A DNA stretch of 64,000 nucleotides from Deltaproteobacteria bacterium. GTDB lineage: Bacteria; Myxococcota; Myxococcia; SLRQ01. The translations under genes and the position numbers were made by a program. This document shows, piece by piece, positions 41,389 through 62,200 of this stretch. The stretch's first letter is position 1. Every line of letters begins with the position of its first letter. The notes under the pieces are model-generated. The model worked only from the letters and a program-made list of their open reading frames with translations, searched no databases and was not told where the DNA came from. The DNA lies in contig JARGFU010000001.1 of NCBI GenBank assembly GCA_029210625.1, forward strand, positions 261,806 through 325,805, in the 5' to 3' direction.

Positions 41389-42456
41389 GTGCCCTACTGG
41401 CGCCTGGTCCTGGCGTCCGAGCCCGACACCCCCGGGAAGCTCAAGCGGGTGGCCCAGACCCCGATGATCCGCAAGGACACCCGGACGACGACCCTCTCCG
41501 GGCGTGAGCGCGATCGCTACTTCGTGCGGGTGGGCGAGGGGGAGCCCTTCTACCTGGACGTCGGCTTCGTGCTGGGCACCGACTCGGTCACCGACTCACG
41601 CAGCCTGGCCAAGGCCGACCTCGATGGAGACGGCGACCTCGACCTGATCCTGCGCACCGAGGGCCCGAACCGGAAGCTGCGGGTCTACCGCAATGAGGGG
41701 CCCTCGGGCCCCTCCGCCGAGGTCCGCTTCGCCACCAGCCGGGACGCCGCCTCGGCCACGATCCTCGTCACGAGCGGCGACGCCACCACCAAGATCCCCA
41801 TGCTCATCGGCCAGGGCTTCCTGGCCCAGGACCCCTACCGGCAGCTCGTCCCGCTGGGCGAGGACGGGAAGACCGAGCTGAAGGTCCGCTGGCCCGGCGG
41901 AGAGCAGGTGAAGCTCGACGCCCTCGTGCCCGGGGCGATCGTCGAGGTCCGGCGCTACCCCGAGGCGAAGCTCAGCGTGCTCACCCGCCCTGCCCCCCTC
42001 GTGCTGGGGGGGAGCGCCGTCGAGACCGCGCCGGCCACCTGCGACCTGGCGGCCCTGAAGGAGGATCTGCCCGAGGAGGAGGCGGAGCTGGTCGAGGCCG
42101 GCGAGGAGCGCCGACCCCTGCTGCTCAACCTCTGGGCGCCCTGGTGCCAGCCCTGCCGCAAGGAGCTGCCGCTGCTCGCTCGCTTCGCGAAGCAGCACCC
42201 CGAGGTCGAGGTGCGGCTGCTGGCCGTCGACGGCACGCCCCCCGCCATCGCGAAGATGGCCGGCAAGCTCGCGCCCGGGGTGAAGGTCACCCGCCTGAAG
42301 AGCGGCGCCGTCGAGCGGCGCGGCGAGGCCCTGCGGATCCCCACCACCTGCTTCTACGACACCGCGCGGACGCTGCAGCGGGGCTGGGCCATGCCCGTGG
42401 GCAAGGCGACCCTCGACGCCCTCGCCCCCCGGCCCGCCGCCTCCGAGACCCCATGA
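41389..42456 (+). CDS. UnbV/ASPIC C-terminal domain fused to a TlpA-like thioredoxin domain; GTG start immediately after the upstream TGA in the same frame (likely once part of the FG-GAP gene)
   Basis: One more FG-GAP repeat (ADLDGDGDLDLILRTEGPNRKLRVYRNEG), the UnbV_ASPIC-like block (ATILVTSGDATTKIPMLIGQGFLAQDPYRQLVPLGEDGKTELKVRWPGGEQ), then a Trx fold with CxxC (LLLNLWAPWCQPCRKELPLLARF). Confidence 0.6.
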   Translation: MPYWRLVLASEPDTPGKLKRVAQTPMIRKDTRTTTLSGRERDRYFVRVGEGEPFYLDVGFVLGTDSVTDSRSLAKADLDGDGDLDLILRTEGPNRKLRVYRNEGPSGPSAEVRFATSRDAASATILVTSGDATTKIPMLIGQGFLAQDPYRQLVPLGEDGKTELKVRWPGGEQVKLDALVPGAIVEVRRYPEAKLSVLTRPAPLVLGGSAVETAPATCDLAALKEDLPEEEAELVEAGEERRPLLLNLWAPWCQPCRKELPLLARFAKQHPEVEVRLLAVDGTPPAIAKMAGKLAPGVKVTRLKSGAVERRGEALRIPTTCFYDTARTLQRGWAMPVGKATLDALAPRPAASETP

Positions 42457-43271
42457 ACGAGCTCGTCGTCTTCGAGAGCCGGGACGGCGTCACCGTCCTG
42501 CGGATGAACCTCCCGCGTCGCCTCAACGGCTGGACGATGGAGATGATGGAGGCGCTGCGCGCCGCGCTCGAGCGCGCCGCCGGGGACGCCGCGACGAAGG
42601 TCGTCATCCTCACCGGCACCGACCCCTACTACAGCGCCGGGGTGAACCTCGGCGGCACCCTGAAGCTGGGTCACCCCCGCGAGCTACACGCGCAGATCGT
42701 GAAGCACAACCAGGCCCTCTTCGACGGCTTCATCGAGTTCGGAAAGCCGATCCTGGTGGCGGCGAACGGGCCGGCCATCGGCGCCAGCGTCACCTCGGCC
42801 ACCCTCTGCGACGGGATCATCGCCTCGGAGGAGGCGACCTTCTCCACCCCCTTCGCCGCCCTGGGCGTCCCCCCGGAGGGCTGCTCCAGCGTGCTCTTCG
42901 AGAAGCTGATGGGCGCGGCGACCGCCGAGCGCATCCTGGGGAAGGAGGGCTGGAAGCCCACCGGCACCGAGGCGAAGGAGATCGGCCTGGTGCAGTGGGT
43001 GGTGCCCCACGGCGAGCTGCTGGCCGAGGCGCGGAAGATCGCCGAGGGGTGGATCGAAGAGGGCCGCGAGCGCGGCTACCGCGGCGGGACGAGCCGGGAG
43101 GAGCTGCTGGCGGTGAACGCCCGGGAGTCGGTGCAGGTGGCCGACTCCTTCCTCTCCGCGCCCTTCCTGAAGGGTCAGTACCGCTTCCTCAAGAGCAAGA
43201 AGAAGTGGGCGCCGGCGGCGACCTTCTTCCTGCTCTGGCGCACGCGGCCCCTCTGGTCGCGCCTGATGTAG
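42453..43271 (+). CDS. enoyl-CoA hydratase/isomerase (crotonase) family protein
   Basis: Crotonase fold motifs VVILTGTDPYYSAGVNLGG and ILVAANGPAIGASVTSATLCDGIIASEEATFSTPFAALGVPPEGCSS. ATGA overlap with the upstream gene. Confidence 0.8.
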   Translation: MNELVVFESRDGVTVLRMNLPRRLNGWTMEMMEALRAALERAAGDAATKVVILTGTDPYYSAGVNLGGTLKLGHPRELHAQIVKHNQALFDGFIEFGKPILVAANGPAIGASVTSATLCDGIIASEEATFSTPFAALGVPPEGCSSVLFEKLMGAATAERILGKEGWKPTGTEAKEIGLVQWVVPHGELLAEARKIAEGWIEEGRERGYRGGTSREELLAVNARESVQVADSFLSAPFLKGQYRFLKSKKKWAPAATFFLLWRTRPLWSRLM

Positions 43272-43439
43272 CTAAACCAGAAATCACGATTCCCGATCAC
43301 GCCTGGCTTGCAGGCCGCACCCGCCTGCGGCGTCAGGCCTCGGTCACCTAGCTAAGGCTAGGCTCCCTCACCCTTCCTTGCATCCGGGCACGTCCGCGGC
43401 GCCATCCGCTGTTCGGGAATCATGATCTCTGGTTTAGCT
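43270..43439. mobile_element. MITE-like small element (~170 bp) with 28-bp imperfect terminal inverted repeats and lower GC than its surroundings
   Basis: Left end AGCTAAACCAGAAATCACGATTCCCGAT (43270-43297). The reverse complement of the right end, AGCTAAACCAGAGATCATGATTCCCGAA (43412-43439), matches at 25/28 positions. Internal palindrome CCTAGCTAAGGCTAGG. It is the only clearly non-coding, AT-richer stretch in the window. The stop codons of both flanking convergent genes (TAG 43269-71; TAA on the minus strand at 43434-36) lie at or inside the TIRs. Confidence 0.45.
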
Positions 43440-44855
43440 TCCGCTCTGGAGGTGGACGCCGAGGGAGAGCCAGGGCAGCGGGAGGATCTTGCCGCCCTCG
43501 CCGGTGTCCGCGTCCTGGGCCCAGACCCAGAGCAGGGCGAAGCCCAGGCGCAGGCGGAAGGCCTCGGGGCCCATCAGGCCCTTGCCGCTGCCCGGGCCGA
43601 TCTGCAGGCGCAAGCCCGTGGTGAGCATCGTGTCCCGAAACGGGGCGCGGGGCAGCAGCTCGGTCGCGAAGCTCCAGCGCTGCCCGACCCGCTGCTCGGC
43701 CGCGAAGAAGGGGAGCAGCTGCACGGGGATGCGCTCGATCACCCGGTCGTCCCCGGCGCAGACGTCCACGCCGCCCCCCACGCCCGGCGCGCCCAGCCCC
43801 CCCGCGCCGCAGGCGGAGCGGAAGGAGAAGGACTGGGGCAGGAGGTGGTGGTTGTCGAGGAGGTAGGCGCCCGCCACCAGGTGGGTGCGCCGGCGGGGGC
43901 CGAAGTGCTTGCCCACCGTCAGGGTGAAGAGGTTGAACTGCATGTTCGCGCCGCCCACGGCCACGAAGCCCGCGCCCGCGACCCCGTTGCCGAGGAAGGC
44001 CACGCCCCCGCCGCCGATGCCGGCGCCGAAGAGGTCGAGGAGGTCGTAGGCCAGCGCCACGCCCGGGAGCTTCGCCTGCTCGTCGAGGATCTTTACCTTC
44101 AGACCCAGATCGAAGAAGCCGAAGATCGCCAGCCCGCCGGCGCCGCCGGCGATGAGCCCGCCCGCCGGCACCGCCCCGCCGATGGCGCCGGGCACGGGGA
44201 AGCCGCCGAGCCAGAGCTGGAGCTGAACCCGATCCGAGAGGCCCATCGCCATCCGGAAGAGGAGGAGCTCGTCGTTGGAGACGAGCAGGTGGCCGGGGCG
44301 CAGGGTGAGCTCCGAGGGCGAGAGGAGGATCCGCTCGTCGCCGGTGTCGCGGGCGACAAAGCGGGTCCGGGCGTGACCGACCCGCAGGCCGAGCTGCCTT
44401 CCGAGCTCCCGGCCGGCGCGCTCGTGGAGCGCCGCCTCCTGGCCGGGGGGCGCGCCCGGCGCACCCCAGCGGCTGCGGCCGACCAGGGTGCCGTCGGGGA
44501 GCGCGAGGAGGCCCTCGACGATGAGGCGGCCGGAGCGCGAGTGATCCACCATCCGGCCGACGAGGTCCACGGTGTCGGAGCGCGAGCCGGTGAGGACCGA
44601 GCGCGCCTCCAGGATCCGGATCTCCAGCCGGAAGGCCGGCTCCCCTGCCTCGCTCGTGAGGCCGGCGGCCTCGGCGAGCGCCGGCCCGGCCGCCGCGGCG
44701 ATCGGCCCGGCCACCGGGCCCTCCCCGGTCGCCCGGACGTTGCGGATCCCGGCGTGGCGTCCCAGGGGGGCGACCCGCCCGCGCCCGGGGAGCGTGCCGC
44801 AGGCCGAGGCGAGCAGGAGCGCGAGGAGCAGGGAGCCTCTCGTCGGCGATCGCAT
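43434..44855 (-). CDS. lipoprotein / outer-membrane protein with a Gly-rich beta-barrel-like C-terminal half, hypothetical
   Basis: Lipobox LLLASAC. The C-terminal half is Gly/Ala-rich with an amphipathic beta-strand pattern. Last gene of a three-gene minus-strand operon. Confidence 0.45.
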   Translation of the reverse strand: MRSPTRGSLLLALLLASACGTLPGRGRVAPLGRHAGIRNVRATGEGPVAGPIAAAAGPALAEAAGLTSEAGEPAFRLEIRILEARSVLTGSRSDTVDLVGRMVDHSRSGRLIVEGLLALPDGTLVGRSRWGAPGAPPGQEAALHERAGRELGRQLGLRVGHARTRFVARDTGDERILLSPSELTLRPGHLLVSNDELLLFRMAMGLSDRVQLQLWLGGFPVPGAIGGAVPAGGLIAGGAGGLAIFGFFDLGLKVKILDEQAKLPGVALAYDLLDLFGAGIGGGGVAFLGNGVAGAGFVAVGGANMQFNLFTLTVGKHFGPRRRTHLVAGAYLLDNHHLLPQSFSFRSACGAGGLGAPGVGGGVDVCAGDDRVIERIPVQLLPFFAAEQRVGQRWSFATELLPRAPFRDTMLTTGLRLQIGPGSGKGLMGPEAFRLRLGFALLWVWAQDADTGEGGKILPLPWLSLGVHLQSGS

Positions 44856-44862
44856 CGGCTGG

Positions 44863-46104
44863 CTAGAGGGCGAGCTGGTAGCCCACGGTCAGGCCGAGGC
44901 CGCCGAGGAGGGAGCTCGCGGAGAGCGCACCGGTGTCGTCCTCGGGGCCGCCGAAGAGGATCGTCGTCTGCGCCTCGAGGGTGACGGCCCCCGGCCCCAG
45001 CGCGAAGGAGGGGCCGAGGGAGACGCCGAGCGCCGGCGTGATGCCCGAGGCCGAGCGCCCCGCCGTGCTCGCCGAGAGGAAGGCGGCGCCGCCGATCAGC
45101 TGCGCCTGCCAGCGCAGGCCGCGCAGGGAGGGGGTCTGGAGGCGGAGGGCGAGCCCGAAGGAGAGCCCCTGCCAGTCCAGGCGGCGCGGCTCGCCGGCGG
45201 CGTCGGTGCCCGCGCTGGAGGCGGGCAGGTAGTCGACCGCCAGGCCCAGGTCGAGGCCGTCCTTCAGGAGGCCGGTGCGGTAGAGCGCGTGGGCGCCACC
45301 CCCGATCGCGGGGGAGCCCACGCCGCTGGCGGCGGCCAGGACCCGCAGCCCGAGCTTCAGGTAGCGGCGGCGGGGGCCGGCGGGCGCGGCGGGCGGCTCG
45401 GGGCGCTTCAGGTGATCGGGCAGGGGGGGGAGGCTGGCGAGGGCGACCTCGCCCCCGCTCTCCGGCTCGGCGGGCTTCACCTCCACCGCCGCGACGACGG
45501 GGGGCGGCGCGACGACGGGGGGCGCCGCGGGCGGCGGCGGGACGGGATCGGTCCTGCTGTCCTCGAAGGCCACCAGCTCGATCGCCGGCTCCTTCGGCGC
45601 GGGCTGCTTCGCGGGCTCCTCTTCGACCAGCCCCACGGCCATCATCGCCTCCAGATCCTCGGAGGCGGCGATCACCGACACGGCGATCGAGCGGCCGCGG
45701 GTGACCAGCTCGAAGCGATAGGCGTGCATGCCCTCGGGCACCTTGATCTTCAGGATCTTCTTCTCGCTGGGCACGTACTCCATGTCGGTGAGGTACATGC
45801 CCCCGTCGGGCTCCTTCAGGGTGATCCGGCGGATCCGGAAGCCGTCCTGGAAGACCATGAACTCGGTCTCGACCTCCCCCGCCTTCTCGTCGCCCTGCAG
45901 GTCCTGGCGCACGGCGATGGAGAGCTCCTCGGGACCCTTCACCACGAAGCCCAGGGACTTGCCCGCGACGACCCGGAAGTAGTTGCGGGTGTCCCCGTCC
46001 ACCATCAGGGTGGCCTCGTGCTTGGAGCGCACGTCGATCTCGACGGCGCTGGCGAGCGCGGGAGCCAGGAGCAGGGCGAAGACGAGCGGGAGGGAGCGGT
46101 TCAT
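44863..46104 (-). CDS. secreted protein with an N-terminal beta-sandwich domain, a Pro-rich linker and a C-terminal outer-membrane beta-barrel-like domain, hypothetical
   Basis: Signal peptide LVFALLLAPALASA, an (AP/PV)-rich linker, and a C-terminal alternating hydrophobic pattern ending TVGYQLAL, reminiscent of an OMP terminal strand (not the canonical terminal aromatic). Overlaps the upstream GMC oxidoreductase gene by 4 nt. Confidence 0.45.
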   Translation of the reverse strand: MNRSLPLVFALLLAPALASAVEIDVRSKHEATLMVDGDTRNYFRVVAGKSLGFVVKGPEELSIAVRQDLQGDEKAGEVETEFMVFQDGFRIRRITLKEPDGGMYLTDMEYVPSEKKILKIKVPEGMHAYRFELVTRGRSIAVSVIAASEDLEAMMAVGLVEEEPAKQPAPKEPAIELVAFEDSRTDPVPPPPAAPPVVAPPPVVAAVEVKPAEPESGGEVALASLPPLPDHLKRPEPPAAPAGPRRRYLKLGLRVLAAASGVGSPAIGGGAHALYRTGLLKDGLDLGLAVDYLPASSAGTDAAGEPRRLDWQGLSFGLALRLQTPSLRGLRWQAQLIGGAAFLSASTAGRSASGITPALGVSLGPSFALGPGAVTLEAQTTILFGGPEDDTGALSASSLLGGLGLTVGYQLAL

Positions 46105-47696
46105 CCTTCGGCCTCGGGGTCGGTGGGTTCGTCCTTCGGGGGGATGAAGGTCATCGCGCGCTCCGCGAGCGCACAGATCGAGAGGGAGGGGTTCACGCCC
46201 GGGTTGGCCGAGATCGCCGACCCGTCGATGACGTACATCCCATCGTAGCCGAAGACCCGGTGCTCGGCATCGATGACCCCCTCGCTGGCGTCCTTGCCGA
46301 TGACGCAGCCGCCGAGGATGTGCGCGGTGGTGGGGATCCCCAGGAGGGTCTCGGTGATCAGAGAGCCGGGGTAGCCGTTCATCCGCTTCGCGATGCGGTA
46401 GGCGAGCTCGGAGGCCTCGGGGATGGCCGCGGTGGGCCTCGGCCCGCCCCCGACCTCGGTGGTGACGCCGCGCCGGAAGAGGGTGAAGGGGTGCCTCCCG
46501 AGCTTCATCCGCAGGTGCCCGTCGAGGGTGCGCATGTAGAGGAGGATCATCGTGTAGCGCGCCCAGTCCGGGACGAGGTAGGCCCGCAGCGTCCGCCAGG
46601 GGTGGCGCAGGGCGTAGAGGAAGCCCCGCGCCAGCCGGGAGAGTGGATTTCCGCCCGGGCTGTGGGGCGACATCAGGGTGCGGAAGGCCCCGGAGCCGTG
46701 GGGGTAGCGCACCGGCTCGAGGTGGGAGTGCTCGTCGGTGTGCAGGATCGAGGTGATCGCCACGCCCTCGGAGAGGTTCACGTCCCGATCCTGGGTCGTG
46801 ACGCCCATCAACACCTCGGAGTTCGTCCGCACGAAGTGCCCGAGACGATCCGAGAGCCGCGGCAGGCTGCTCTCCTTGAGCTTCAGGAGCAGGTTCACCG
46901 TACCGAGGACGCCGCCGGCGAGGATCACCTTCGGCGCCCGCACCCGCTGGGTCTTGCGGCCGAAGAGGCTGGCCCCGCGCTTCACCACGAGCTCGTAGCC
47001 CCCCTCCTCGAGGGGCAGGAGGTCGACCACCTCGCTGTCGGGCTGGATGGTCAGCCCCTTCTTCTCGGCCAGGTAGAGGTAGTTCTTGTCGAGGGTGTTC
47101 TTGGCGTTCTCCTTGCAGCCGATCATGCAGCCGCCGCAGAGGATGCAGCCGGTGCGGTCGGGACCCTCACCCCCGTGGTAGGGGTCGGGCACCGTCTGAC
47201 CCGGCTCGCCGAAGTAGACGGCCACCGTGGTGGGGTGGTGGTGATCCTCGCGGCCGATCTCCTTCGCCACGTCGGCCAGCACCCGATCGGCGTGGGTCCA
47301 GGCCGGGTTCTCGGTCGCCCCGAGCATCTCCCGCGCCCGCTGGTAGTGGGGCATCAGCTCGGCCTTCCAGTCGGCCAGGTGCCCCCAGGAGTCGGCGGTG
47401 AAGTACTCGTCCTTCGGGATCGGCAGGGTGTTGGCGTAGACCAGGGAGCCCCCGCCCACCCCCACCCCGGAGAGGGCGGTGACGTTGGGCAGGAAGGTCA
47501 TCTTGAAGAGCCCGCGGAAGCCCAGCTGCGGCAGCCAGAGCCAGCGCTTCAGGTTCCAGTTGGAGCTCGGGAAGTCCCGCGCCTCCAGGCGGCGCCCCTT
47601 CTCGAGCACCAGCACCTTGTAACCCTTCTCGACGAGGCGCAGGGCGCTGACGCTACCCCCGAAGCCCGACCCGATGATGACGTAATCCCAGCTCAT
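46101..47696 (-). CDS. GMC-family FAD-dependent oxidoreductase (cholesterol oxidase-like)
   Basis: N-terminal FAD-binding fold YDYVIIGSGFGGSVSALRLVEKGYKVLVLEKG, plus the GMC N- and C-terminal signature regions (GGGSLVYANT, HPLGGCVIG-like GGCVIGKD). Confidence 0.8.
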   Translation of the reverse strand: MSWDYVIIGSGFGGSVSALRLVEKGYKVLVLEKGRRLEARDFPSSNWNLKRWLWLPQLGFRGLFKMTFLPNVTALSGVGVGGGSLVYANTLPIPKDEYFTADSWGHLADWKAELMPHYQRAREMLGATENPAWTHADRVLADVAKEIGREDHHHPTTVAVYFGEPGQTVPDPYHGGEGPDRTGCILCGGCMIGCKENAKNTLDKNYLYLAEKKGLTIQPDSEVVDLLPLEEGGYELVVKRGASLFGRKTQRVRAPKVILAGGVLGTVNLLLKLKESSLPRLSDRLGHFVRTNSEVLMGVTTQDRDVNLSEGVAITSILHTDEHSHLEPVRYPHGSGAFRTLMSPHSPGGNPLSRLARGFLYALRHPWRTLRAYLVPDWARYTMILLYMRTLDGHLRMKLGRHPFTLFRRGVTTEVGGGPRPTAAIPEASELAYRIAKRMNGYPGSLITETLLGIPTTAHILGGCVIGKDASEGVIDAEHRVFGYDGMYVIDGSAISANPGVNPSLSICALAERAMTFIPPKDEPTDPEAEG

Positions 47697-49649: not shown

Positions 49650-50116
49650 TCTCTCTCGACCGGCGCCTCCTGAAGCGTGCCTTCTTCCGGCTGGTCAGCG
49701 TCTACCCGCCCTACCTCGGGGCGGGCGTCCGGCTGACCCACGTCGCCGAGGACCTCCTCACCATGGAGGTCGAGATGAAGCTCACGCCCCTCAACCGCAA
49801 CTACGTCGGCACCCACTTCGGTGGCTCCCTCTACAGCATGTGCGATCCCTTCTTCATGCTGATCCTGATGGAGGCGCTCGGAGAGGGCTTCGTCGTCTGG
49901 GATCAGGAGGCGACCATCCGCTTCAAGAAGCCCGGGCGCGGCAAGGTGCGGGCCCGCTTCTCGGTGAGCCCGGCCGAGGTGGAGTCGATCCGGCACGACG
50001 CGATCAAGCACCGCAAGACCTCTCCGGTCTTCCGGACGAAGGTCACCGACGAGCAGGGTGAGGTCGTCGCCGAGATCGAGAAGACCCTCTACGTCCGGCA
50101 GCGCGAGGCGGCCTGA
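49646..50116 (+). CDS. DUF4442/YiiD_C-like hot-dog fold (thioesterase-like) protein
   Basis: Hot-dog fold-like motif NYVGTHFGGSLYSMCDPFFMLILMEALG. ATGA overlap with the MFS transporter gene suggests co-transcription. Confidence 0.55.
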   Translation: MISLDRRLLKRAFFRLVSVYPPYLGAGVRLTHVAEDLLTMEVEMKLTPLNRNYVGTHFGGSLYSMCDPFFMLILMEALGEGFVVWDQEATIRFKKPGRGKVRARFSVSPAEVESIRHDAIKHRKTSPVFRTKVTDEQGEVVAEIEKTLYVRQREAA

Positions 50117-50193
50117 AACGGCTCCTGTTTCCGGGGGGTTGAGCGCCCTGGGGTGGATCCCCGCGGTGTAGGCCCGGGTAGTCCGGTGTCGCA

Positions 50194-50209
50194 TGGCCCC
50201 GAGGCTGCG
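50194..50209 (+). promoter_or_regulatory. candidate sigma-54 (-24/-12) promoter element upstream of the giant adhesin gene
   Basis: TGGCCCCGAGGCTGCG fits the GG-N10-GC spacing and the TGGC...TGC core of sigma-54 promoters. It lies ~70 bp upstream of the ATG at 50280, and a sigma-54 activator (NtrC family) is encoded in the window. Spotted by eye only. Confidence 0.25.
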
Positions 50210-50279
50210 CGGGCGGCTATTCTTTGGGCTTTCCGACTGCGTTCATGCCGGACGCGGTCCGGGAGGCTGGGAGGATCGC

Positions 50280-53200
50280 ATGCAACGCTGGATCGTTGTC
50301 TGCTTCGTGGGCCTGGGCCTGATGACGGCCTGCAACTCGAACGTCGCCGTCGACAACCCCTACGATCCCGACGCCCCTCCGGCGTTGCAGGTCACCAGCC
50401 TGATCACCGGGCGGGTCAGCGCGGAGGCGGCCTTCGACCCCGCGAGCCTGACGATCACCGTCGAGGGGCTCACCCCCCGGGGCAGCCCCGTGCGCGACGT
50501 GGCGGTGGAGCTCGACGACACCACGACGCCCGTCTCCTTCTCGACCTTCCTGCCCGCCGGCACCTACCTCGTCCGCGCGGAGGTCCCCGGCTTCCGCGCC
50601 GACGAGCGCACCGGCGTGCTCGTGGCGACGGGCGAGGATCAGGACATCGGCGAGCTCTATCTCCTGGCCGGCCGAGGCACCCTGGCCGGGCGCGTGGTGA
50701 TCCCGGATCCAGCCGGTGATCGCCCCGCGCCCCTCGAGACCGAGGTCACCCTCCTGCGCCTCGGCTCCCCGGTGGCCACGCCCTCCGACACCTCCTGCAC
50801 CGAGCTCGCCGCCGAGGAGTCCGTCCGCGCCCGCCTCCGCGCGGACGGCACCTTCGAGGAGCGCAACCTCGCCGTCGGCCCCTTCGTGGTCATCGCCTCC
50901 CTCGACGGCTACCTGCCCGCGGTCGTCGCCCAGAGCGTCGAGGTCCTCACCGACGGGGTCACCGACGTGGGCACGCTGCAGCTCACCGACGGGGAGGGCA
51001 TCCTCACCCTCACCGCCCCGGCGAACCCCGACGCCGATCCGGCGGGCCTCGCCACCTCCGCCTCGACGATCACCGCCAACGTGGTCCTCCCGCCGGTCTA
51101 CAACGGCATGCAGCTCTCGCTGATGCCCGACTTCGGCGACGTGGCCGACTGGTCCACGCCGGCCACCTCCACCCTCTTCGACCTGACCGGCGCCAGCGAC
51201 GGGGAGCAGCAGCTCTTCCTGCGCTTCCGGGCGCCCACCTGCGATCTCTCTCCGACCTTCGTCGCCAGCATCATCCTCGACACCACGCCGCCGGTGGCCG
51301 CGGCGCCGGCGCCTGCGAGCGGCTCGAGCTGCTCCAACGACGCCCAGGTCACGATGGACCTCCCGGGCGAGGATCCCTGCGCGGCCGACCAGAGCTGCGC
51401 CGGCCTCTACCAGATGCGGGTCGTCTCCGACGGCACCCTCGATACCGAGACCTTCGTCGACTACCTCCCCCGCGACATCGTCGCCTTCCCCGGCGACGGC
51501 ACCCACGACATCACCCTCGAGCTGCGCGACGCGGCGGGCAACACCTCGGCGCCCACCACCAGCACGGTGACCATCAACTCGGTGGGACCCCAGCCCGGCG
51601 GCGCCATCCTGCGGATCGACGACGGCAGCGGCACGGTGCGCTCGCTCTCGGTCCTGCTCACCTTCGACGTCACCGGCGCCACCGGGGTCGAGGTCGGCAA
51701 CGCGGCGGGCCTCGACGGCAGCGCCTGGGTGGCGCTGCCCCCGAGCCAGCAGCTCTCCTGGCAGCTCGCCGCCGGCGCCGACGGCCTGCGCACGGTCGTC
51801 GCCCGCTTCCGGGACGACTGCGGCAACGTGACCCAGGAGTACCCGGTCGACGTGCTCCTCGATCGCTCGGGGATGATCGCCGGCGCGGCCCGCCTCGAGG
51901 CCGGCGCGGATCACAGCGGCACCGTGGTCTCCTTCTGGCTCTGGGACGCCAGCGCGGCGGGCGGCGCGGGCGACTACGTGGACACGGCCCTGACGGCCAC
52001 CACCTCCGTGAACGGCGCCTTCAGCCTCTCCGGGCTGGCGGCCGGCGACTACCGCCTGGTCTTCTCTCACCCGGGCTTCAGCCAGCGGGTGATGGACGGC
52101 CTCATCCTCACCGAGGGCGCGGTGCGCACCCTGGGCGAGGTGGTCCTCCAGCTGGCCCGCGGTGAGCTCGAGGGCTCCGCCACCCTCCTGGGCGAGGGCA
52201 GCCACGAGGGGATCCGCGTCCAGGCGGCGCCGGGCATCACCACCGTCACCGACTCGGCGGGCAGCTACCTCTTCACCGATCTCCCCGTCGGCGACTACTA
52301 CGTCTCGGCCACCGCCGACGACGCCTTCCAGGGCGCCGCCTCCCCCACCCCGGCCACCGTGCTCGAGGGTCAGCGCGTCACCGCCGACCCCCTCGTGCTC
52401 CAGCCGATCCCCGGCAGCATCGCCGGCACCGCCCTGCGCTCCGGCCAGACCACCCACGGCGGCATCGACGTCCTCCTCGAGGGCGCCACGGTGGGCGACA
52501 CGCCGGTGCAGGACAACACGGTCACCCTCGCCGACGGGACCTACTCCTTCCCCTCGCTCACCGCCGGCACCTACCGCCTCGTCTTCCAGACCGCCCAGTA
52601 CCAGGCCGCGACCGCCGAGGGCGTGGTCGTGCCGCCCAACACGCCGGTGACCGTCACCCCGGTCACCCTCGCCAAGGCCACCGGGGCCCTGCGGGTGGCG
52701 GTGGACATCTCCGACCGCAGCAACGAGTCGGGGGTGGCGATCATCCTCGAGCAGAGCGGCACCTCCGTGCTGACCCAGCTCTCCCCGCCCGACGGCATCG
52801 TCTACTTCGCCTCGGTCCCGGCCGACAGCTACACCCTCGTCGCCCGCCTCGACGGCTACGGGGAGGAGCTGATCACCCCGGTGGTGGTCTCGGCCAACAG
52901 CACGACCGACCTCACCACCACGCCCATCGTCCTCACCCCGCAGATCGGCGACGCCTTCCTGCAGACCCCCGCCGGGGCGGTCCTCGGCGCCGCGACCAAC
53001 CTCACCTCCATCGAGGTGGGCGGCTCCTTCCCCGGCGTGAACCAGGTGCGGATCTGCGAGAGCCCGAACATCCTCCTGGGCGGCGACCCCGACACCTTCT
53101 CCACCGGGAACTGCGCCTGGCGGGCCATCACCCAGCTCCCCGGGGACGCCTTCCAGCCCCTGCCCTTCACCTTCTCCCAGTCGCAGTGCCCCGACCCCGG

Positions 53201-56200
53201 CGATCCGGTGGCCATCTGCGACGGCCAGAAGGTCGTCTGGGTGAAGATGCAGGACACCACCTCCGGGCTCGTCTCCGAGTGGTTCCCCCTCGACATCGTC
53301 CTCGACCGGGTCGCCCCGCAGGGCAACATCGTCATCTCCCCCACGGCCAGCACCACCTCCGGGGATCTGGTCGTCGGCGACGGTGAGGCCTACACCGCCT
53401 CCCTCAACGTCTCGGCGCTGGTCGCGGCCCAGGAGGATCTCTCCGGCGTCGCCGCCGGCGGCGCGGTCGCCGGGGTGGTCAGCGGACGCATCTTCCGCAG
53501 CACCACCGACACCAACCCGGTGCTGGTGAGCCTCAAGGAGGGCCTCACCTCCGTGCCGGTGATCACCCTCACCCCGGGGGCCGACGGCGACCGGCAGCTC
53601 TACCTCGAGGTCTCCGACGCCGCGGGCAACCGCTCGGTCACCGATCTCACCACCGTGACCTGCCCGCCGGCGCGCACCCCCAGCCTGCCCACCGACTGCG
53701 ACGCCATCTTCGTCGATCGCACGCCGCCCCCCTCCCTGGCCTTCAGCATCGAGCCCACCTCCCCGGGCACCGACATGTCCCTGGGGGCGGCCTGGACCGC
53801 CACCACCACCGTCACCCTGGGGATCGACTCCACCATCACCGGCCTCGCGGAGGACGAGGCGGTCTCGGCGATCATCGCCAACGACTCGGGCTTCGTGGCC
53901 AGCCTGGCCATGCCCCTGGCGAACCCGGTCTCGCTGGTGGGCTGGAACCTCACCGTGGGAGACGGCACCAAGAACGTCTACATCCGCGTCCGGGACGCGG
54001 CCGGCAACCTCTCGGGCGTCTTCTCGGACAGCATCGGCCTGGACACCCTGGCCCCACAGATCCCGGTGCTCGACGAGGTCCCGCCGGTCACCGCCGACGC
54101 CTCACCGGCCCTCTCCTTCACCGGCGGCACCGGCGCCACCCGGCACTTCCTCCAGCTCTCGGACAGCGCGTCCTTCGACGGCTCCGGCCCCGGCGCGGTC
54201 TTCGTGGAGGTGGAGCTGACGGACTTCGACTACACCGCGATCGACGACGCCGCGGGCGCCGCCGCCTACCCGCTGGCCGACGGCCTCTACTGGTGGCGGG
54301 TGCAGGCCGCCGACGACGCGGACCTGCGCAGCCCCTTCACCCCGGCGCAGCGCTTCGAGGTCGACACGGTGGCCCCCGGGCCCACGACCCTGGACCTCGT
54401 CGACAGCCCGACCCGGGACACGACCCCGACCCTCACCTGGGCAGCGACCACCGACGCCCGGCTCTACCACCTCCAGATCTCCACGACCTCCGACTTCAGC
54501 GCGGGGATCCAGGTCGACCAGACCACCGCCCAGCTGAGCCTCACCTCCAGCACCCTGGGTGAGGGCACCTGGTACGCCCGGGTGCAGACCATCGACGCCG
54601 CGGGCAACGCGGACGCCGCCGGCTTCTCCAACACCGTCACCTTCGTGGTGGACACCACTGCCCCGGCCGACGCCATCCTCTCCGCCCCGGCGAACGCCTC
54701 GACCTGGAGCACCCAGCCGGTGGCCTTCACCTGGGCCTCGGTGGCGGACGCCGTCGCCTACCGCCTCGAGATCGCGCTCAACGCGGGCTTCACCGGCGCC
54801 ATCGTGGAGGCCGGGCTGACCACCACCGCCCGCTCGCTGGTCCTCGACGAGGGCGCCTACTGGGCGCGGGTGATCACCACCGACGCGGCCGGCAACCGCT
54901 CCCTGGGGACGACCTTCATCACCTTCACCGTGGACACGGTCGCGCCGGACGTCCCGACCCTCAACCGCCTGCCCAGCCTGATCTCCGAGCGCCAGCCGGT
55001 GCTCTCCTGGAGCGACGAGGCCGCCTCCGGCGCCGTGACCTACCTCGTGCAGGTGGACGGCGTGGACCGGCCGGTCTCCGGCACCACCACCTACACCGTG
55101 CCCCTGGCCGAAGCCCTGGCGGACGGCGTCCACACCTGGACGGTCGCCGCCCGGGACGCCGCCGGGAACACCAGCGCCCACGCCACCCTGCAGTCCTTCA
55201 CCGTGGACGCCACCGCGCCGGCCACGCCGGTGCTGGTGCCGGTGAACCCCGACCCCACCTCCCTCACCCAGCCCACCCTCGCCTTCGCGGCGGTGGGGGA
55301 CGCGGTCGAGTACGAGGTCGAGTGGCACGACAACAACCTCTTCACCGGGGGCACCGGGAGCAGCGCCCTGATCACCGGCACCTCCACCAAGCCGAGCGTC
55401 GCGCTGGGCAACGGCACCTGGCACTGGCACGTCCGGGCCCGGGACGCCTCGGGCAACTGGAGCGCCTTCTCCTCCGTGGACGACTTCGTGGTGGACACCA
55501 CGGCCCCGGCCGACCCGACCCTGCTGACCCCCGCCGCGGGGAGCTCGGTGACCTCGACCTCGGTCGACTTCACCTGGGCCGCGGTGGCCGACGCCGTCCG
55601 CTACCAGCTCGAGATCGCCTCCGACGCGGCCTTCACCTCGCCCCAGATCGAGTCCGGCCTGACCACCACCGCCCGCGCCGTCGTCCTCACCGATGGGAGC
55701 TGGTGGGCCCGCGTGCGCGCGATCGACGCCGCCGGCAACGTCTCCGCCGGCGCCGCCGACAACGCCTTCACCGTCGACACCACCGCGCCGGACGTGCCGA
55801 CCCTCACCCGCCTGGCCGACCTGATCTCCGAGACCCAGCCCGTGCTCGGCTGGAGCGACGAGGCCGCCAGCGGCGCCGCGGCCTACCTCCTGCAGATCGA
55901 CGGCGCCACCCGGGTGGTCTCCGGCGCGACCAGCTACACGGTCCCGCTGGCCGAGGCCCTCGCCGACGGCACCCACACCTGGACCGTCGCCGCCCGCGAC
56001 GCCGCCGGCAACGTGAGCGCCTTCGCCACGGCGCAGGCCTTCACCGTGGACGCGACCGCGCCGGGCGTGCCGGGCCTGGTGGCCGTCAGCCCCGATCCCT
56101 CCTCGAACACCCTGCCCACCCTCGCCGTGAAGCCGGTGAGCGACGCCGTCGAGTACGAGCTCGAGTGGCACGACAACAGCCTCTTCACCGGCGGCGTCGG

Positions 56201-59200
56201 CGGGAGCGACACCGTCGCGACGACCTCCACCCAGCCCTCGTCGGCCCTCGGCGGCGGCACCTGGTACTGGCGCGCCCGGGCCCGGGACGCCGTCGGCAAC
56301 TGGAGCGGCTGGTCCACCACCGGCAGCTTCGTGGTCGACGTCACGGCGCCCTCGGATCCGACCCTCCTCACGCCCGTCGCGGCGAGCAGCCTGGCCACCT
56401 CCTCGGTGGCCTTCAGCTGGTCCTCGGTGGCGGACGCGGTGGCCTACCGCCTGGAGATCGCCACCAACGCCGGCTTCACCGCCGCCCAGGTGGAGGCCAA
56501 CCAGACGACGACGGCCCGCTCGGTGGTCCTCACCGACGGAAACTGGTGGGCCCGGGTGCGGGCCATCGACGCCGCCGGCAACGTCTCCGCCGGGGCCTCG
56601 AGCACGGCCTTCACGGTGGACACCACGGCCCCCGCCGTGCCGACCCTCACCCGCCTGGCCAGCCTCATCAACGAGACCCAGCCGGTGCTCTCCTGGAGCA
56701 ACGAGGCCGCCTCCGGCGCCACCGCCTACCTCCTGCAGATCGACGGCGTCGACCGGGTCGTCACCGGCGCCACCTCCTACACCCTGCTCCTGGCCGAGGC
56801 CCTCGCCGACGGCAGCCACGCCTGGACCGTGGCCTCCCGCGACGCCGCGGGCAACGTGAGCGCCTACGCCACCGCCCAGGCCTTCACCGTCGACGCCACG
56901 GCGCCGGCGGTGCCGGTGCTGGTGGCCGTCGCCCCGGATCCCTCCCGCGTCACCCAGCCCACCCTCGCCCTCCAGCCGGTGAACGACGCGGTCCAGTACG
57001 AGGTCCAGTGGCACGACAACAACCTCTTCACCGGCGGTGTGGGCGGGACGAACACGATCACCATCCCCACCACCCAGCCGGCCCCGGCCCTGGGCAACGG
57101 CACCTGGTACTGGCGCGCGCGGGCGCGGGACCAGGCGGGCAACTGGAGCGCCTTCTCCTCCTCCAGCAGCTTCGTGGTCGACATCACCGCCCCGGCCGAC
57201 CCCTCCCTGCTGACCCCCGCCGACGGCAGCGCGGTGACCTCCAACTCGGTCGCCTTCAGCTGGTCCTCGGTGGCCGACGCCGCCACCTATCAGCTCGAGA
57301 TCTCCACCGACGCGGCCTTCACCGCGCCGACGCGCGAGAGCGGCCTGACGGCCACCTCCCGCTCGGTCGTCCTGGGGGACGGCCCCTGGTGGGCCCGGGT
57401 GCGCGCGGTCGACGCTGCGGGCAACCTCTCCGCCGGCGCGGCGGACAACGCCTTCACCGTCGACACGACCCCGCCCGACGTGCCCACGCCGGTGGCCCTG
57501 ACCTCGCCGACCACCGACGCGACGCCGACCTTCAGCTGGAGTGACGAGAGCGCCAGCGGCGCGGTCGGCTATCGCCTCGACCTCGACGGCACGGTGACCT
57601 CCGTGGCCTCGACCTCCCACACCCCGGCCTCGAACCTGGCCGACGGTCCCCACAGCTTCGCCGTGGCCGCGGTGGACGCCGCGGGCAACCGGAGCGCCTA
57701 CTCCTCGGCCCAGGTCTTCGAGGTCGACGCCACCCTCCCGGCGGTGCCGGTCCTGACCCCGGTGAGCCCCGACCCCCGGAACACCACCACCGTCGCCCTC
57801 GCCTGGTCGGCGGTCGCCGACGCCCTGAGCTACACCGTCGAGTGGGACACCGACGTGGGCTTCACCAACGGCGCCGGCGGGCAGGCCACGGTCTCCTCGC
57901 CCGGCCACAGCGTCGGCCCCCTGGCCGAGGGCACCTGGTACTGGCACGTCCGCGCCACCGACGACGCCACCAACCAGAGCGCCTTCTCCAGCCCCGACGC
58001 CTTCGTCATCGATCTGAGCGCGCCCATCAACCCGGCGCCCTCCACCCCCGCCGACGCCAGCTACTCCACCAGCTCGACCGTGGCCTTCACCTGGAGCAGC
58101 GTCGCCGACGCGGCCGCCTACCTCCTGGATCGCTCGACCTCCCCGACCTTCGCCACCTACGACCGCAGCGAGGGCACGAGCACCAGCCAGCTGGTCACCC
58201 TGCCCGACGGCATCTGGTACTGGCGGGTCCTGGCGCGGGACGCGGCGGGCAACGTCTCGCCGACCGCCACGGCCACCGTGCGCAGCGTCGAGGTGGACAC
58301 CGTGGCCCCGGCCGCCCCGGTGCTGACCTCCGTGACCACCCCCACCAACGACACCACGCCGACCCTCGCCTGGTCCGCCGTGACCGGGGCCGCGAGCTAC
58401 GTGGTCACCCTCGACGGCTCGACGACCACCGTCACCTCCCCCACCCTCACCCACACTCCGTCGGCCCTCGGGGACGGCAACCACACCTGGACCGTCGCCG
58501 CCCGCGACGCCGCGGGCAACCTGGGACCGGCGGCCCCCACCGAGGTCTTCGTGGTGGACGCCACCGCGCCGGCGGCGCCCACCCTCATCGCCTACTTCCC
58601 GGATCCCACCACCGACAACACCCCCACGGTGCAGTGGAACACCGTCCCCGACGCGGACACCTACCGGGTGAGCTGGAGCGACGACGGCTTCCTCACCTCC
58701 TCCTTCGCGACCACCTCCGACGTGAGCCTCGAGATCGGGCCGCTGACCGGCAGCCCGGCGACCACCTGGTCGTGGCGGGTGGAGAGCCTGGACGCCCTCG
58801 GCAACGCCTCGGCGCCCTCGTCGCCGGACAGCTTCCTGGTCGACACCGTCACCCCCACCGCGCCCTCGCTGATCGCGCCGGCCGACGGCGCCACCGCGAC
58901 CGGCGTCACCGTCTCCTTCTCCTGGTCCTCGGTGGGCGACGCCGCGAGCTACCGCCTGCAGGTGGGCTCGGACGCCACCCTGGCGACCATCGTCCACGAT
59001 CTCGCGGGCCTCTCCTCCACGTCGACCGATCTGACCCTCACCGACGCCGTCTGGTACTGGCGGGTGCTGGCCACCGACGCCGCGGGCAACCAGACCGCGC
59101 CGGCCTCGGCGACGATCTGGAGCGTCACCGTCGACGCCAACGCCCCGTCGACCCCGACCCTCGCGGCGATCGCCACGCCCACCAACGATGGCACGCCCAC

Positions 59201-62200
59201 CTTCACCTGGAGCGACGAGTCGGGCAGCGGCGCCACCCAGTACCTCCTGCGCATCGACGCGGTGGACACCACCCTGGCCGCCCTCACCTACACCCCGGCC
59301 TCGAACCTGGCCGAGGGCTCGCACACCATCTCGGTCGCCGCCCGGGACGGCGCCGGCAACACCAGCGCCTACAGCGCCTCCCAGACCATCATCGTCGACC
59401 TCAGCGCCCCGAGCGCGCCCGCCAACCCGCTCCCGGCCGGCGGCGCGGCCGACACCGACGGCTCGGTCGACTTCTCCTGGGATGCCTCCACCGACGCGCT
59501 GACCGCGGTGAGCTACCGGCTGCAGGTGGCGCAGGCCAGCGACTTCCTCACCCTCCTGGTGAACGACACGCCGGCGACCGAGAGCGCCACCGTGCTACTG
59601 GCCGACGGCACCTACCGGTGGCGGGTGCGGGCCGAGGACGCGGCGGGCAACGTCTCCGCCTGGGTCTCGGCGGCCAGCGGCCAGAGCCTGACGATCGACA
59701 CGACCGCTCCGACCGCCCCCGACCTGATCCCCGTGGGCGCCACCGTCAGCGCCTCGCCTACCCTGCGCTGGTACTCCCAGGCCGCCTCGGGCGCGACCCT
59801 CTACTCCGTCGAGGTCGACGACGACTCCCTCTTCGGCAGCCCGGACGCGACGGGCAGCACCAGCGGCACCAGCTTCGCCACCACCCTGGGCGACGGCACC
59901 TGGTACTGGCGAGTGCGGGCCCAGGACGCCCACGGGAACTCGAGCGCCTGGTCCTCCACCGACACCTTCGCGCTCGACAGCACCCCGCCGGGCCCGCCCA
60001 CCAACACCAGCCCGGCCGACGGCAGCTCGGGCAACGCCTCGGCGGTCACCTTCTCCTGGACCGCGCCGGCCGGCGGCGCCTCGAGCTATCGGCTGGAGAT
60101 CGCCTACGACTCCAACTTCACCGCCCTGGCCTGGCAGGCCACGACGCTGGACCCCACCGTCTCGGTGACGATCTCCTTCCCCGACGGCACCTACCACTGG
60201 CGGGTCCTCGCCCTCGACGCCGTGGGCAACGAGAGCACCCCGGCGCCGGGCGCCACCGGCGCGAGCTTCACCGTGGACACCACGGCGCCCGACCGGCCGA
60301 CCGTCACCACCACCCCGGGCTGGGTCGGCCTCGCCGACAGCAGCTACACCCTGGGCTGGAGCGACGAGTCGGACAGCGGGGCGGCGACCTACCAGTATCA
60401 GGTCTCCAGCAGCTCGAGCTTCGCCACCCTGGAGACGAGCGGCACCGTCACCTCGCCCTCGACCAGCGTGACGATCAGCACGATCCCGGCGGACGGCACC
60501 TGGTACTGGCGCGTGCGCGCCCTCGACACCCTGGGGAACCCGAGCGTCGCGACCGCCGGCTGGACCAGCGCCACGAGCTTCGGCGTGGACCGGGTGAACC
60601 CGACGGCGCCGGGCTTCGTGGCCCCGCCCGACGAGCCGAACCCGGGCTACATCATCGCCGCCAGCACGGTGACCCCCGAGTGGACCGCCTCCACCGACAC
60701 CAACCTCTCCCACTACCAGCTGCAGATCAGCCAGGCCTCGGACTTCTCCAACCAGGTCGTGGTCGACACGACGGTGACCAACACCCTCTCGAACCAGACC
60801 CTGGGCGACGGCGTCTACTACTGGCGCGTCCGCGCGGTGGACCTGGCCGGGAACGTCTCCGACGACTGGAGCACCGCCGCGAACTCCCGCAGCTTCACCG
60901 TCGACACCACCCAGCCCTCGGCGACCTCGCTCTCGCCCCTCACCAGCCCGACCTCCGACGCCCGCCCCGACCTGGCCTGGTCGGCGGTCAGCGACGCCGA
61001 GATCTACCGGATCGAGTGGTCCCAGGATCCCACCTTCGGGACGGTGCCCATCACCCTCATCCGCAGCGAGGATCCGGCGCCCCGGGCCTACCTCCAGGAC
61101 AGCGACTACGCCGTGCCCGGCGCTCTCACCGACGGCACCTGGTACGCCCGGGTGATCGTGCAGGACGCGGCGGGCCTCCAGAGCGCCCCCTCCGCCTCGC
61201 TCCAGGTCGTGATCGACACCAGCGCCCCGAGCGCTCCGTCCAGCTGCGCCCTGACCACCCTCACCTCCTACGCCAACGCCCTGGCCGATCCGACCCCGGA
61301 GTTCACCTGGGAGGTGGTCGCCGGCGCGGCCTCCTACACTCTCGAGATCGAGCGCTGGGTCACCGGCGCCTGGCAGGCCGACTCCACCATCACCGGCATC
61401 GACGGCGCCGCCACCTTCGGCGTGGTCTTCTCCCTGCCCTCGGCCAGCAGCCTCACCGACGGTGACCTCTACCGCTTCAGCGTCGAGGCGGTGGACTCGG
61501 CGGGTAACGTCTCGGCGCCGGTCTACTGCGTGACCGACGGCCTGGGCGACACCAGCCTGCGCTCGGATCAGTCCGGGCCCATCTCGGGGGTCTCGGGCCT
61601 GGTCTTCGCCGGCGCCAACCCCACCAGCGGCGTCACCGCCACCGTGCAGTGGACCGCCGAGGAGGACGTCACCAACTCCGGCGAGTACGGCTACGACGTC
61701 TCTCTGCTGGCTCAGGACCAGGTCACCGTCATCGCCTCGGCCACGATCCCCTGGGCGAACGGCTTCACCCCCGGGCCGCGCAGCCAGAACTTCGCCGTCC
61801 CCCTCGACGGCACCTACTACGCCAAGGTCGTGGCCTGGGACGCCGCCCTCAACCGCTCGGCGACCTCCACCACCGTCACCCCCCTGGTGATCGACAACAG
61901 CCCCCCCACCGGCACGGTCACGATCACCAACGGTGAGCCCACCAACGCCACCGCCCTCTCCCTGGCCCTCACCTACTCCGGTGACGTCACCCAGATGCGG
62001 ATCGAGGAGACCGTCGCCCTCGACTGCTCGGTGGGAACCTACGAGAGCGTCGCCGCCACCAAGAACTTCGCCATCGCCGGCGTGGGTATGGTGAGCGTCG
62101 GCGTCTGCTTCAAGGACGCCGCCGGCAACACCTACGCCGCCTTCGACACCATCGAGGTCGACCGGACGAGCCCCGACGGAGTCTTCGTCATCTACGCCGA

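Follow-up and report, generated by a model that had tools for sequence, protein, structure and literature searches.

What is the inverted repeat that separates two convergent genes of an uncultured, myxobacteria-like bacterium, and did its arrival alter the proteins encoded on either side? The repeat lies in a 64,000-nt stretch (hereafter the window) of contig JARGFU010000001.1 from assembly GCA_029210625.1 of a 'Deltaproteobacteria bacterium', between the ends of an enoyl-CoA hydratase gene and a lipoprotein-like gene. A preliminary description had proposed a MITE (miniature inverted-repeat transposable element) that supplies the stop codons of both genes and possibly replaced their native C-termini, or alternatively a bidirectional terminator or a structured regulatory RNA. 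The comparisons presented here suggest that this 160-bp element probably represents a new family of TA-type bacterial MITE, whose transcript would fold into a long hairpin and which would have inserted, in the manner of IS630, between two abutting stop codons; judging from the reconstructed site, the insertion most likely changed neither protein.

Extent of the element and its relatives

The inverted-repeat arms occupy positions 43270-43299 and 43410-43439 (30 nt each, 110 nt apart) and are complementary at 27 of 30 positions (90%). The repeats noted in the preliminary description are therefore real, and its count of 25 complementary positions in 28-mers is correct. When used as a search pattern, a 27-nt arm with up to 3 mismatches matched only 2 sites in the 64 kb, namely the two arms, and had no match in any of 100 dinucleotide shuffles of the window. 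Alignment with two further full copies from metagenomes (L058 and L092, introduced below) places the start of the element at AAACCAG and its end at CTGGTTT, corresponding to window positions 43274-43435, with unrelated flanks beyond. By this comparison, the boundaries first proposed were 4 bases too wide on each side: the outer AGCT is flanking sequence, which mimics the repeat because the inferred target, AGCTAGCT, is itself palindromic. The features of the element are as follows.

43275-43434, minus strand (the strand on which the conserved hairpin forms): element proper, 160 bp, or 162 bp including the terminal A and T
43275-43299, plus strand: left terminal inverted repeat, AACCAGAAATCACGATTCCCGATCA; among the three full copies, the arms show 97% identity and 48 of 50 invariant columns
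43410-43434, plus strand: right terminal inverted repeat, TGTTCGGGAATCATGATCTCTGGTT
43273-43274, no strand: TA on the left, with C before it at 43272; candidate target-site duplication
43435-43436, no strand: TA on the right, with G after it at 43437; candidate target-site duplication

The right arm differs from the left by the same two transitions in the window copy and in L058, and by one of them in L092; on the minus strand these transitions form G.U pairs. A covariance model built from the three full copies scores the window copy at 168 bits on the minus strand and 63 bits on the plus strand. Within the element lies the palindrome CCTAGC-TAAG-GCTAGG (CCTAGCTAAGGCTAGG, 43347-43362), which, like the two stop codons, is located where it had been reported. 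The description of the region as clearly non-coding also holds, since five of the six frames are broken by stops, the concatenated six-frame translation found no match in any frame among 5.8 billion proteins, and scanning the locus against Rfam with permissive E-values gave nothing beyond sub-threshold noise. A tRNA and tmRNA search of the locus was likewise empty, and scans of the element itself identified no sigma-70 promoter, intrinsic terminator, T-tract, IHF site or outward promoter. With a GC content of 0.62 against a window mean of 0.73, the element is AT-richer than its surroundings; it is not the only such stretch, as had been claimed, since about 45 other 160-nt stretches of the window fall below 0.66 and some equal or undercut it (e.g. 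49770-49929, at 0.59).

Each terminal repeat also contains a loop-less palindrome of 8-10 bp centred on CATG or CACG (window 43285-43294 and 43419-43426; L092 855-864), the right-arm one reading ATCATGAT and that of the left L092 arm AATCATGATT, and these palindromes could serve as the binding site of a dimeric protein. In addition, both arms (43276-43296 and 43413-43433), when read in frame, spell G-N-H/R-D-L/F-W-F, the 'GNHD' motif of metallophosphoesterases. Owing to this mimicry, arm-pattern scans return mostly phosphoesterase genes of unrelated phyla (L001, L002, L006-L016). The resemblance is a coincidence of sequence and not homology; the idea that the arms are a relic of a phosphoesterase gene (G-N-H-D-L-W-F) was rejected, both arms being inverted copies within a non-coding repeat.

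A scan of metagenomes with the arm pattern gave at least 120 matches, which are mostly noise, and among the matches listed three are real relatives. Locus L058 (Ga0316190_10330450) carries a full-length copy that shares 81% identity with the window copy over 165 nt, L092 (Ga0316190_10340152) a full copy with both arms, 162 nt apart, and L041 (Ga0316187_10177400) a remnant at 1290-1347 that keeps the right arm and perhaps 50 nt of a degenerate interior but lacks the left half. Overall, the three full copies are pairwise about 80% identical. Their neighbours differ from case to case: an HU-type gene lies upstream of the L058 copy, and the start codon of an aldehyde dehydrogenase gene lies 11 nt from the element; in L092 the start codon of a 4HBT thioesterase gene lies 12 nt away; and L041 has genes for a Kelch-repeat protein and a small membrane protein, the truncated copy lying about 30 nt upstream of the second gene, within a divergent intergenic region of 155 nt. 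The 11-12 nt between element end and start codon (L058 264-278, L092 829-844) leave scant room for a separate ribosome-binding region and, as far as this spacing can tell, the 5' untranslated regions of the two downstream genes must include the hairpin or begin inside it. The L092 contig ends 19 nt past its copy (1005-1024), as happens when repeats break assemblies, which weakly suggests that the community contains several copies of the element.

The contigs of L058 and L092 have a GC content of 61-64%, compared with 73% in the window. The aldehyde dehydrogenase beside the L058 copy has one database match, P0036 (MDF1563314.1), at 65% identity. This protein is very probably from the same metagenome-assembled genome (MAG) as the window, its accession lying 1,658 away from that of the window's lipoprotein, and this would place the L058 organism in the same broad lineage as that of the window. 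At the same time, the 65% identity and the lower GC indicate that L058 and L092 come from organisms other than the window's. An identity of about 80% in non-coding DNA across that distance points to mobility or to strong constraint, since neutral non-coding DNA would not stay alignable. On the strength of these alignments, the element family occurs in the uncultured 'Deltaproteobacteria bacterium' lineage and in related metagenomic organisms. Scans of viral and genome collections with the bare arm found lone arms without a partner arm, mostly coding matches to GNHD[FL]W; the plasmid collection yielded chance 30-nt matches only; two invariant internal motifs gave 0 and 8 matches in the viral collection, none of them recognised by the covariance model; and a search of roughly 1 Mb of collected loci with this model brought up no additional copy.

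The probable insertion site and the genes on either side

The element is flanked by two convergent genes.

42450-43271, plus strand: enoyl-CoA hydratase/isomerase (crotonase) gene, Pfam ECH_1 (E = 1.2e-31), native C-terminus
43434-44855, minus strand: lipoprotein-like gene, function not assigned, no Pfam domain, native C-terminus

The hydratase stop codon, TAG at 43269-43271, lies wholly outside the shared element. The protein terminates in ...TRPLWSRLM, which corresponds to the conserved ...TRP[LVI]WSRL end of its family; homologues align to the last residue, and many of them stop no more than 1 residue from this point. On the opposite strand, the lipoprotein-like open reading frame (ORF) is the same as MDF1561656.1 of a 'Deltaproteobacteria bacterium' MAG (locus tag P1V51_01360) and begins with a lipoprotein-type signal peptide in which Cys19 is invariant across homologues, the more distant of which come from Archangium, Melittangium and Myxococcales MAGs. 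It ends in ...HLQSGS, in the same alignment columns as its 65-68% identical orthologues P0002 and P0003 (...HFQGGG and ...HFKAGG). Its stop codon, TAA at 43434-43436, straddles the right boundary of the element, and the first paired bases of the hairpin overlap this codon. Both proteins thus end where their homologues end, which refutes the proposal that the element had replaced their native C-termini.

The seven available ends, read towards the element, are CTA, CCA, ATA, CTA, CTA, CCA and CTA, with AACCAG next in every case. Five of the seven have TA, both exceptions being single transitions, and a C (G on the other side) stands outside the TA at six of the seven, so that the flanks have the consensus C-TA...TA-G; the rate of decay at the ends agrees with the approximately 20% divergence of the copies. 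Excision of the element in silico leaves CTG ATG TAG CTA GCT TCC, irrespective of whether a TA duplication or a terminal A/T is assumed. At the reconstructed junction, the hydratase TAG and the lipoprotein AGC TAG on the other strand abut with zero spacer, and both proteins are of homologue length. The empty sites can be reconstructed as follows, TA variants being allowed for L058 and L092.

Window: CTGATGTAGCTAGCTTCCGC
L058: GGATTCCAGTCGCG
L092: AACTTATGGCCCGG

Nor, on this reconstruction, would the element supply the stop codons of the two genes, as had been supposed: that of the hydratase lies outside it, and the empty site already holds an in-frame TAG at the same codon of the lipoprotein gene. 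A derivation of C-TA and TA-G from the target is favoured because the lipoprotein frame would otherwise run more than 30 codons into the hydratase gene, and we infer a TA duplication from the flank consensus together with the reconstruction. Two other candidate duplications were rejected, a 4-bp AGCT since it is not present in the other copies, and a 3-bp TAA/TTA since it is inverted rather than direct. Bacterial MITEs generally have TA termini (PMC2229807), and IS630 is tabulated as inserting at the TA of 5'-CTAG-3' and duplicating the TA (Tenzen and Ohtsubo 1991, in Table 1 of PMC2577343). To judge from their flanks, the ends described here fit insertion into CTAG with duplication of the TA, the signature of IS630. 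The proposed target would then be the central TA of the CTAG formed by the two abutting convergent stops (ATG TAG/CTA GCT), the TA being duplicated upon insertion as it is for DDE transposases of the IS630/Tc1-mariner type. The terminal inverted repeats of about 25 bp would act as transposase binding sites, of which invariance in sequence, and not just in pairing, is to be expected. The sole effect on the genes would be the conversion of the lipoprotein stop from TAG to TAA.

The same ends recall an integron attC site, whose R''/R' consensus is RYYYAAC/GTTRRRY: GCTAAAC...GTTTAGC in the window matches this at 6 of 7 positions, and attC sites fold strand-specifically. The 162-nt length, for its part, recalls the msDNA of myxobacteria and hence a retron msr/msd locus. 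However, the core-like bases beyond AAAC/GTTT belong to the flank and are not conserved in L058 or L092, the first 25 bp are fully paired without an unpaired spacer or extrahelical bases, and there is one copy in 64 kb rather than an array. Since, in addition, neither an integrase nor a reverse transcriptase is present in the window or beside the other copies, where the neighbours encode a crotonase, a lipoprotein, HU, an aldehyde dehydrogenase, a thioesterase and a Kelch protein, we regard both the attC and the retron readings as effectively refuted.

The closest orthologous locus, L003, has no element; its lipoprotein gene runs directly into a convergent thioredoxin-like gene, and since this downstream gene differs from that of the window, L003 is not a true empty site. 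In another locus, L004, the convergent stop lies 3 nt from the lipoprotein stop. Compared with these loci, the element is an insertion into a normally very tight convergent junction, and it is neither syntenic nor locus-specific.

Several further observations concern the surrounding genes. The true start of the hydratase is probably the ATG at 42450, which is preferred because homologues align from about residue 4-10 of this shorter version. The longest ORF has a GTG start at 42144 and shares about 300 nt with the thioredoxin-like/FG-GAP gene upstream (41389-42456); its extension (42144-42449) is probably an artefact of high GC. The C-terminal tail of the hydratase (window 43170-43268) is basic and then hydrophobic, KSKKKW...FFLLWRTRPLWSRLM. 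It is conserved through the subfamily, ending in ...TRPLWSRL or ...TRPVWSRWL, and looks like a membrane anchor or targeting signal. On the lipoprotein side, gene order is conserved between the window (43434-47696, minus strand) and L003 (2720-6836), a 65%-identical relative: a GMC oxidoreductase comes first, then an unknown protein (about 380-410 aa) and last the lipoprotein-like protein (about 470 aa); the latter two proteins have no Pfam domain. Further along the window, an ORF of more than 4,600 codons (50172-64000, plus strand, GC3 0.98) is open at the window end and carries CarboxypepD_reg, Big_13, Big_3_3, fn3 and other Ig-like repeats. Its product, going by these domains, is a giant surface or adhesin-type protein.

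A strand-specific hairpin and its conservation

The whole element folds as one long hairpin, the window copy reaching -110 kcal/mol on the minus strand (z = -9.3) and -89 kcal/mol on the plus strand (z = -5.9). Folds of the three copies came to -99, -91 and -97 kcal/mol on the minus strand and to -76, -68 and -77 kcal/mol on the plus strand, and the consensus fold has 63 pairs at -91.4 kcal/mol on the former and 57 pairs at -63.8 kcal/mol on the latter. The difference between strands extends to the interior, where the inner 108 nt without the arms beat their shuffles on the minus strand only (z from -2.8 to -4.3, versus -0.5 to -1.2 on the other). The inner parts of the fold are the following.

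43310-43328, minus strand: inner block, 3' half of helix 3; plus-strand sequence GCAGGCCGCACCCGCCTGC
43380-43397, minus strand: inner block, 5' half of helix 3; plus-strand sequence GCATCCGGGCACGTCCGC
43332-43376, minus strand: variable apical helix 4, 50% identical among copies, with compensatory double changes in 7 of its 15 pairs

Standard pairs fill 94% of the cells of the minus-strand structure, compared with 33-43% when the partners are slid by 1-3 columns. Two-sided (compensatory) changes are found at 10 pairs, against 3.6 +/- 1.6 in shuffles, none of 500 of which reaches 10. In addition, G.U occurs at 15 paired positions and A.C, which is what G.U becomes on the other strand, at 2 (binomial p = 0.002); four G.U pairs are identical in all three copies. 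Taken together, these statistics agree on selection for the fold on one particular strand, of which we regard them as indicative. In the window this strand is sense for the lipoprotein gene, and in L058 and L092 for the downstream genes.

Conservation is distributed unevenly along the hairpin, with pairwise identities of 97% in the arms, 96% in inner helix 3, 61% in helix 2 and the linkers, and 50% in apical helix 4. The terminal 25-bp helix, 22 of whose 29 pairs never vary, is conserved in sequence and not merely in pairing. Helix 3 has 15 pairs, 14 of which never vary, with three G.U pairs invariant in all copies and fixed internal loops; this pattern suggests a functional module additional to the terminal repeats.

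Under the MITE reading, the element would be read as a 3' extension of the lipoprotein mRNA (minus strand), giving a long double-stranded RNA hairpin that starts from the stop codon. Such a hairpin may act as a 3'-end barrier or as a processing site for RNase III or RNase E, as described for the NEMIS and ERIC repeats, and a ribosome terminating at the lipoprotein stop might open its base, as in the model put forward for ERIC.

The fold also bears on the two alternatives that the preliminary description had offered. A locus-specific bidirectional terminator would be well placed exactly between two convergent stops, with a very stable hairpin on both strands. Yet the element has no T-tract and the terminator scan was empty, the same element lies just upstream of start codons in L058 and L092, and in L003 and L004 no such hairpin separates the orthologous lipoprotein gene from the next convergent gene, which it abuts or overlaps, so that we consider a terminator very improbable. 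As for a structured RNA, folding the transcript bears out one part of the proposal, namely that the family keeps a strand-specific hairpin with compensatory changes; otherwise it stands in part only. As a rival reading, this would be a non-mobile, multi-copy RNA module that acts in cis on stability or processing, or else encodes a small RNA, and that is kept by selection on its structure and on a protein-binding inner helix. The compensatory changes and the G.U asymmetry point to selection on a single-stranded fold, the helix 3 block with its invariant wobbles and fixed loops is what such a module would have, and the favourable strand is the sense strand of the adjacent gene in all three full copies. 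Against this, a terminal 25-bp helix conserved in sequence is unusual in RNA and typical of DNA ends that are bound by proteins. The copies also break off very sharply, flanked by TA on either side, and sit in unrelated surroundings: one at a 3' end where two genes converge, two at 11-12 nt from the start codon that follows, and one that is truncated. Furthermore, no Rfam family, promoter or terminator consensus was found for it, and a near-perfect hairpin of 63 bp is atypical of trans-acting small RNAs. We therefore hold the RNA module to be doubtful.

Comparison with known miniature repeats

The main rival to the MITE reading is a REPIN-like or IS200/IS605-like palindromic element that is moved as single-stranded DNA by a Y1/RAYT transposase, for which the conserved hairpin would be the substrate, with G.T wobbles tolerated on the active strand and without target duplication. 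REPINs have conserved ends, a variable spacer and compensatory changes, form a hairpin in single-stranded DNA or mRNA, and also exist as singlets (PMC3116915). The present family matches this description in its near-invariant ends, in a variable spacer that keeps its length and hairpin capacity, and in its common compensatory changes. Its fold is strongly strand-specific, each arm holds a short palindrome (ATCATGAT or AATCATGATT), and the solo arm in L041 resembles REP singlets. However, the flanks are symmetric (C-TA...TA-G), whereas REPINs have no symmetric TA/CTAG flanks and Y1 elements have a one-sided, asymmetric target. The arms also lack at their outer ends the GTAG or CGTC head that defines most REP families (PMC3733652). 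REPs, moreover, are hairpins themselves and are tied to a RAYT gene; the loop-less arm palindromes would not form stable REP hairpins alone, and no RAYT or other Y1 transposase is encoded among the approximately 36 proteins of the window, although a single-copy RAYT could lie elsewhere in the genome. On balance, we consider a REPIN-like element unlikely.

Returning to the TA-type MITE, the closest parallels are found among three known families. Correia/NEMIS elements of Neisseria are intergenic and often co-transcribed, and their transcripts fold into long hairpins that are cleaved by RNase III (PMC2229807). They resemble the element described here in being non-coding and small (about 100-155 bp), with inverted repeats of about 24-26 bp and TA termini, and they have a TA duplication of the kind proposed for it (PMC2229807). 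There is no sequence similarity between them, however, and Correia elements are A+T-rich and number hundreds per genome, whereas the present family is G+C-rich (62%) and known from at least 3-4 copies; neither an IHF site nor an outward promoter was detected in it, and RNase III processing would apply here by analogy. ERIC/IRU sequences of enterobacteria are imperfect palindromes of about 127 bp with TA ends that are transcribed with flanking genes and affect mRNA stability depending on their orientation, for which ribosome-dependent opening of the hairpin has been proposed as the mechanism (PMC2229807). Similarly, the hairpin in the window starts at the lipoprotein stop and is markedly more stable in one orientation. 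The terminal repeats of ERIC, by contrast, measure 7 bp (PMC2229807) as against about 25 bp here, the host lineage is another, and the present family is known from sequence alone. Finally, the RUP elements of Streptococcus pneumoniae, with IS630-Spn1 as their presumed mobiliser, are likewise small elements bounded by inverted repeats that insert at TA (PMC2229807), and the CTAG target with its 2-bp duplication listed for IS630 in PMC2577343 matches the C-TA...TA-G flanks. The link from RUP to an insertion sequence was made through similarity of their inverted repeats, whereas here the family assignment comes from target-site features only.

As the preliminary description had proposed, a MITE is the best-supported reading of these alignments: the element is small and non-coding, with conserved terminal inverted repeats and TA at five of seven ends, and related copies, one of them truncated, share sharp common boundaries beside unrelated genes. 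A number of points weigh against it. Among 185,579 species-representative genomes, which do not include the source MAG, there was no copy with intact arms. By both arm pattern and covariance model, the 64-kb window holds one copy; the single-copy half of the picture that would favour a fixed, syntenic structure thus stands for the window, while its other half fails, since L003 is without the element and the copies are non-syntenic. Profile searches of the roughly 36 window proteins identified no transposase of any family, no reverse transcriptase and no integrase. As a mobilising gene could lie anywhere in the genome, its absence from the window does not discriminate between the DDE and Y1 models. 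The window also contains no IS630-family insertion sequence bounded by TA-AACCAGARATCAYGATTCCCGA ends, and no transposase with matching ends is known. In addition, the repeat itself could have TA as its two final bases, and the covariation statistics rest on three full sequences and are not definitive. Lastly, a DDE-type MITE alone leaves the compensatory, strand-specific conservation of the hairpin unexplained, and this conservation is also the single-stranded DNA hallmark of REPINs.

A further reading is an element of two layers, in which invariant ends would serve transposition and the inner helix and apical stem would form a separately selected, strand-specific RNA or single-stranded DNA module, an arrangement that we put forward tentatively and consider possible rather than likely. 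The module could be a hairpin dedicated to recognition by a protein or RNase, which hosts would have recruited to set mRNA 3' and 5' ends, or could reflect an undescribed mode of single-strand mobilisation with symmetric TA flanks.

The family is previously undescribed, but it is an ordinary kind of miniature mobile element; no MITE described for myxobacteria was found in the searchable literature and, if correct, the reading favoured here gives a MITE family to an uncultured, myxobacteria-like lineage that has been little sampled. It would also provide a clean example of insertion at a zero-length junction of convergent genes that leaves both proteins intact, correcting the earlier view that the gene ends had been rebuilt. 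In practical terms, such repeats break assemblies, as in the L092 contig, and arms that mimic GNHDxW can mislead pattern searches. For the biology of these elements, the strand-specific, compensated hairpin offers a natural test case of whether MITE hairpins are kept for their own transposition or for RNA processing by the host, a question that also arises for ERIC, NEMIS and REPINs.

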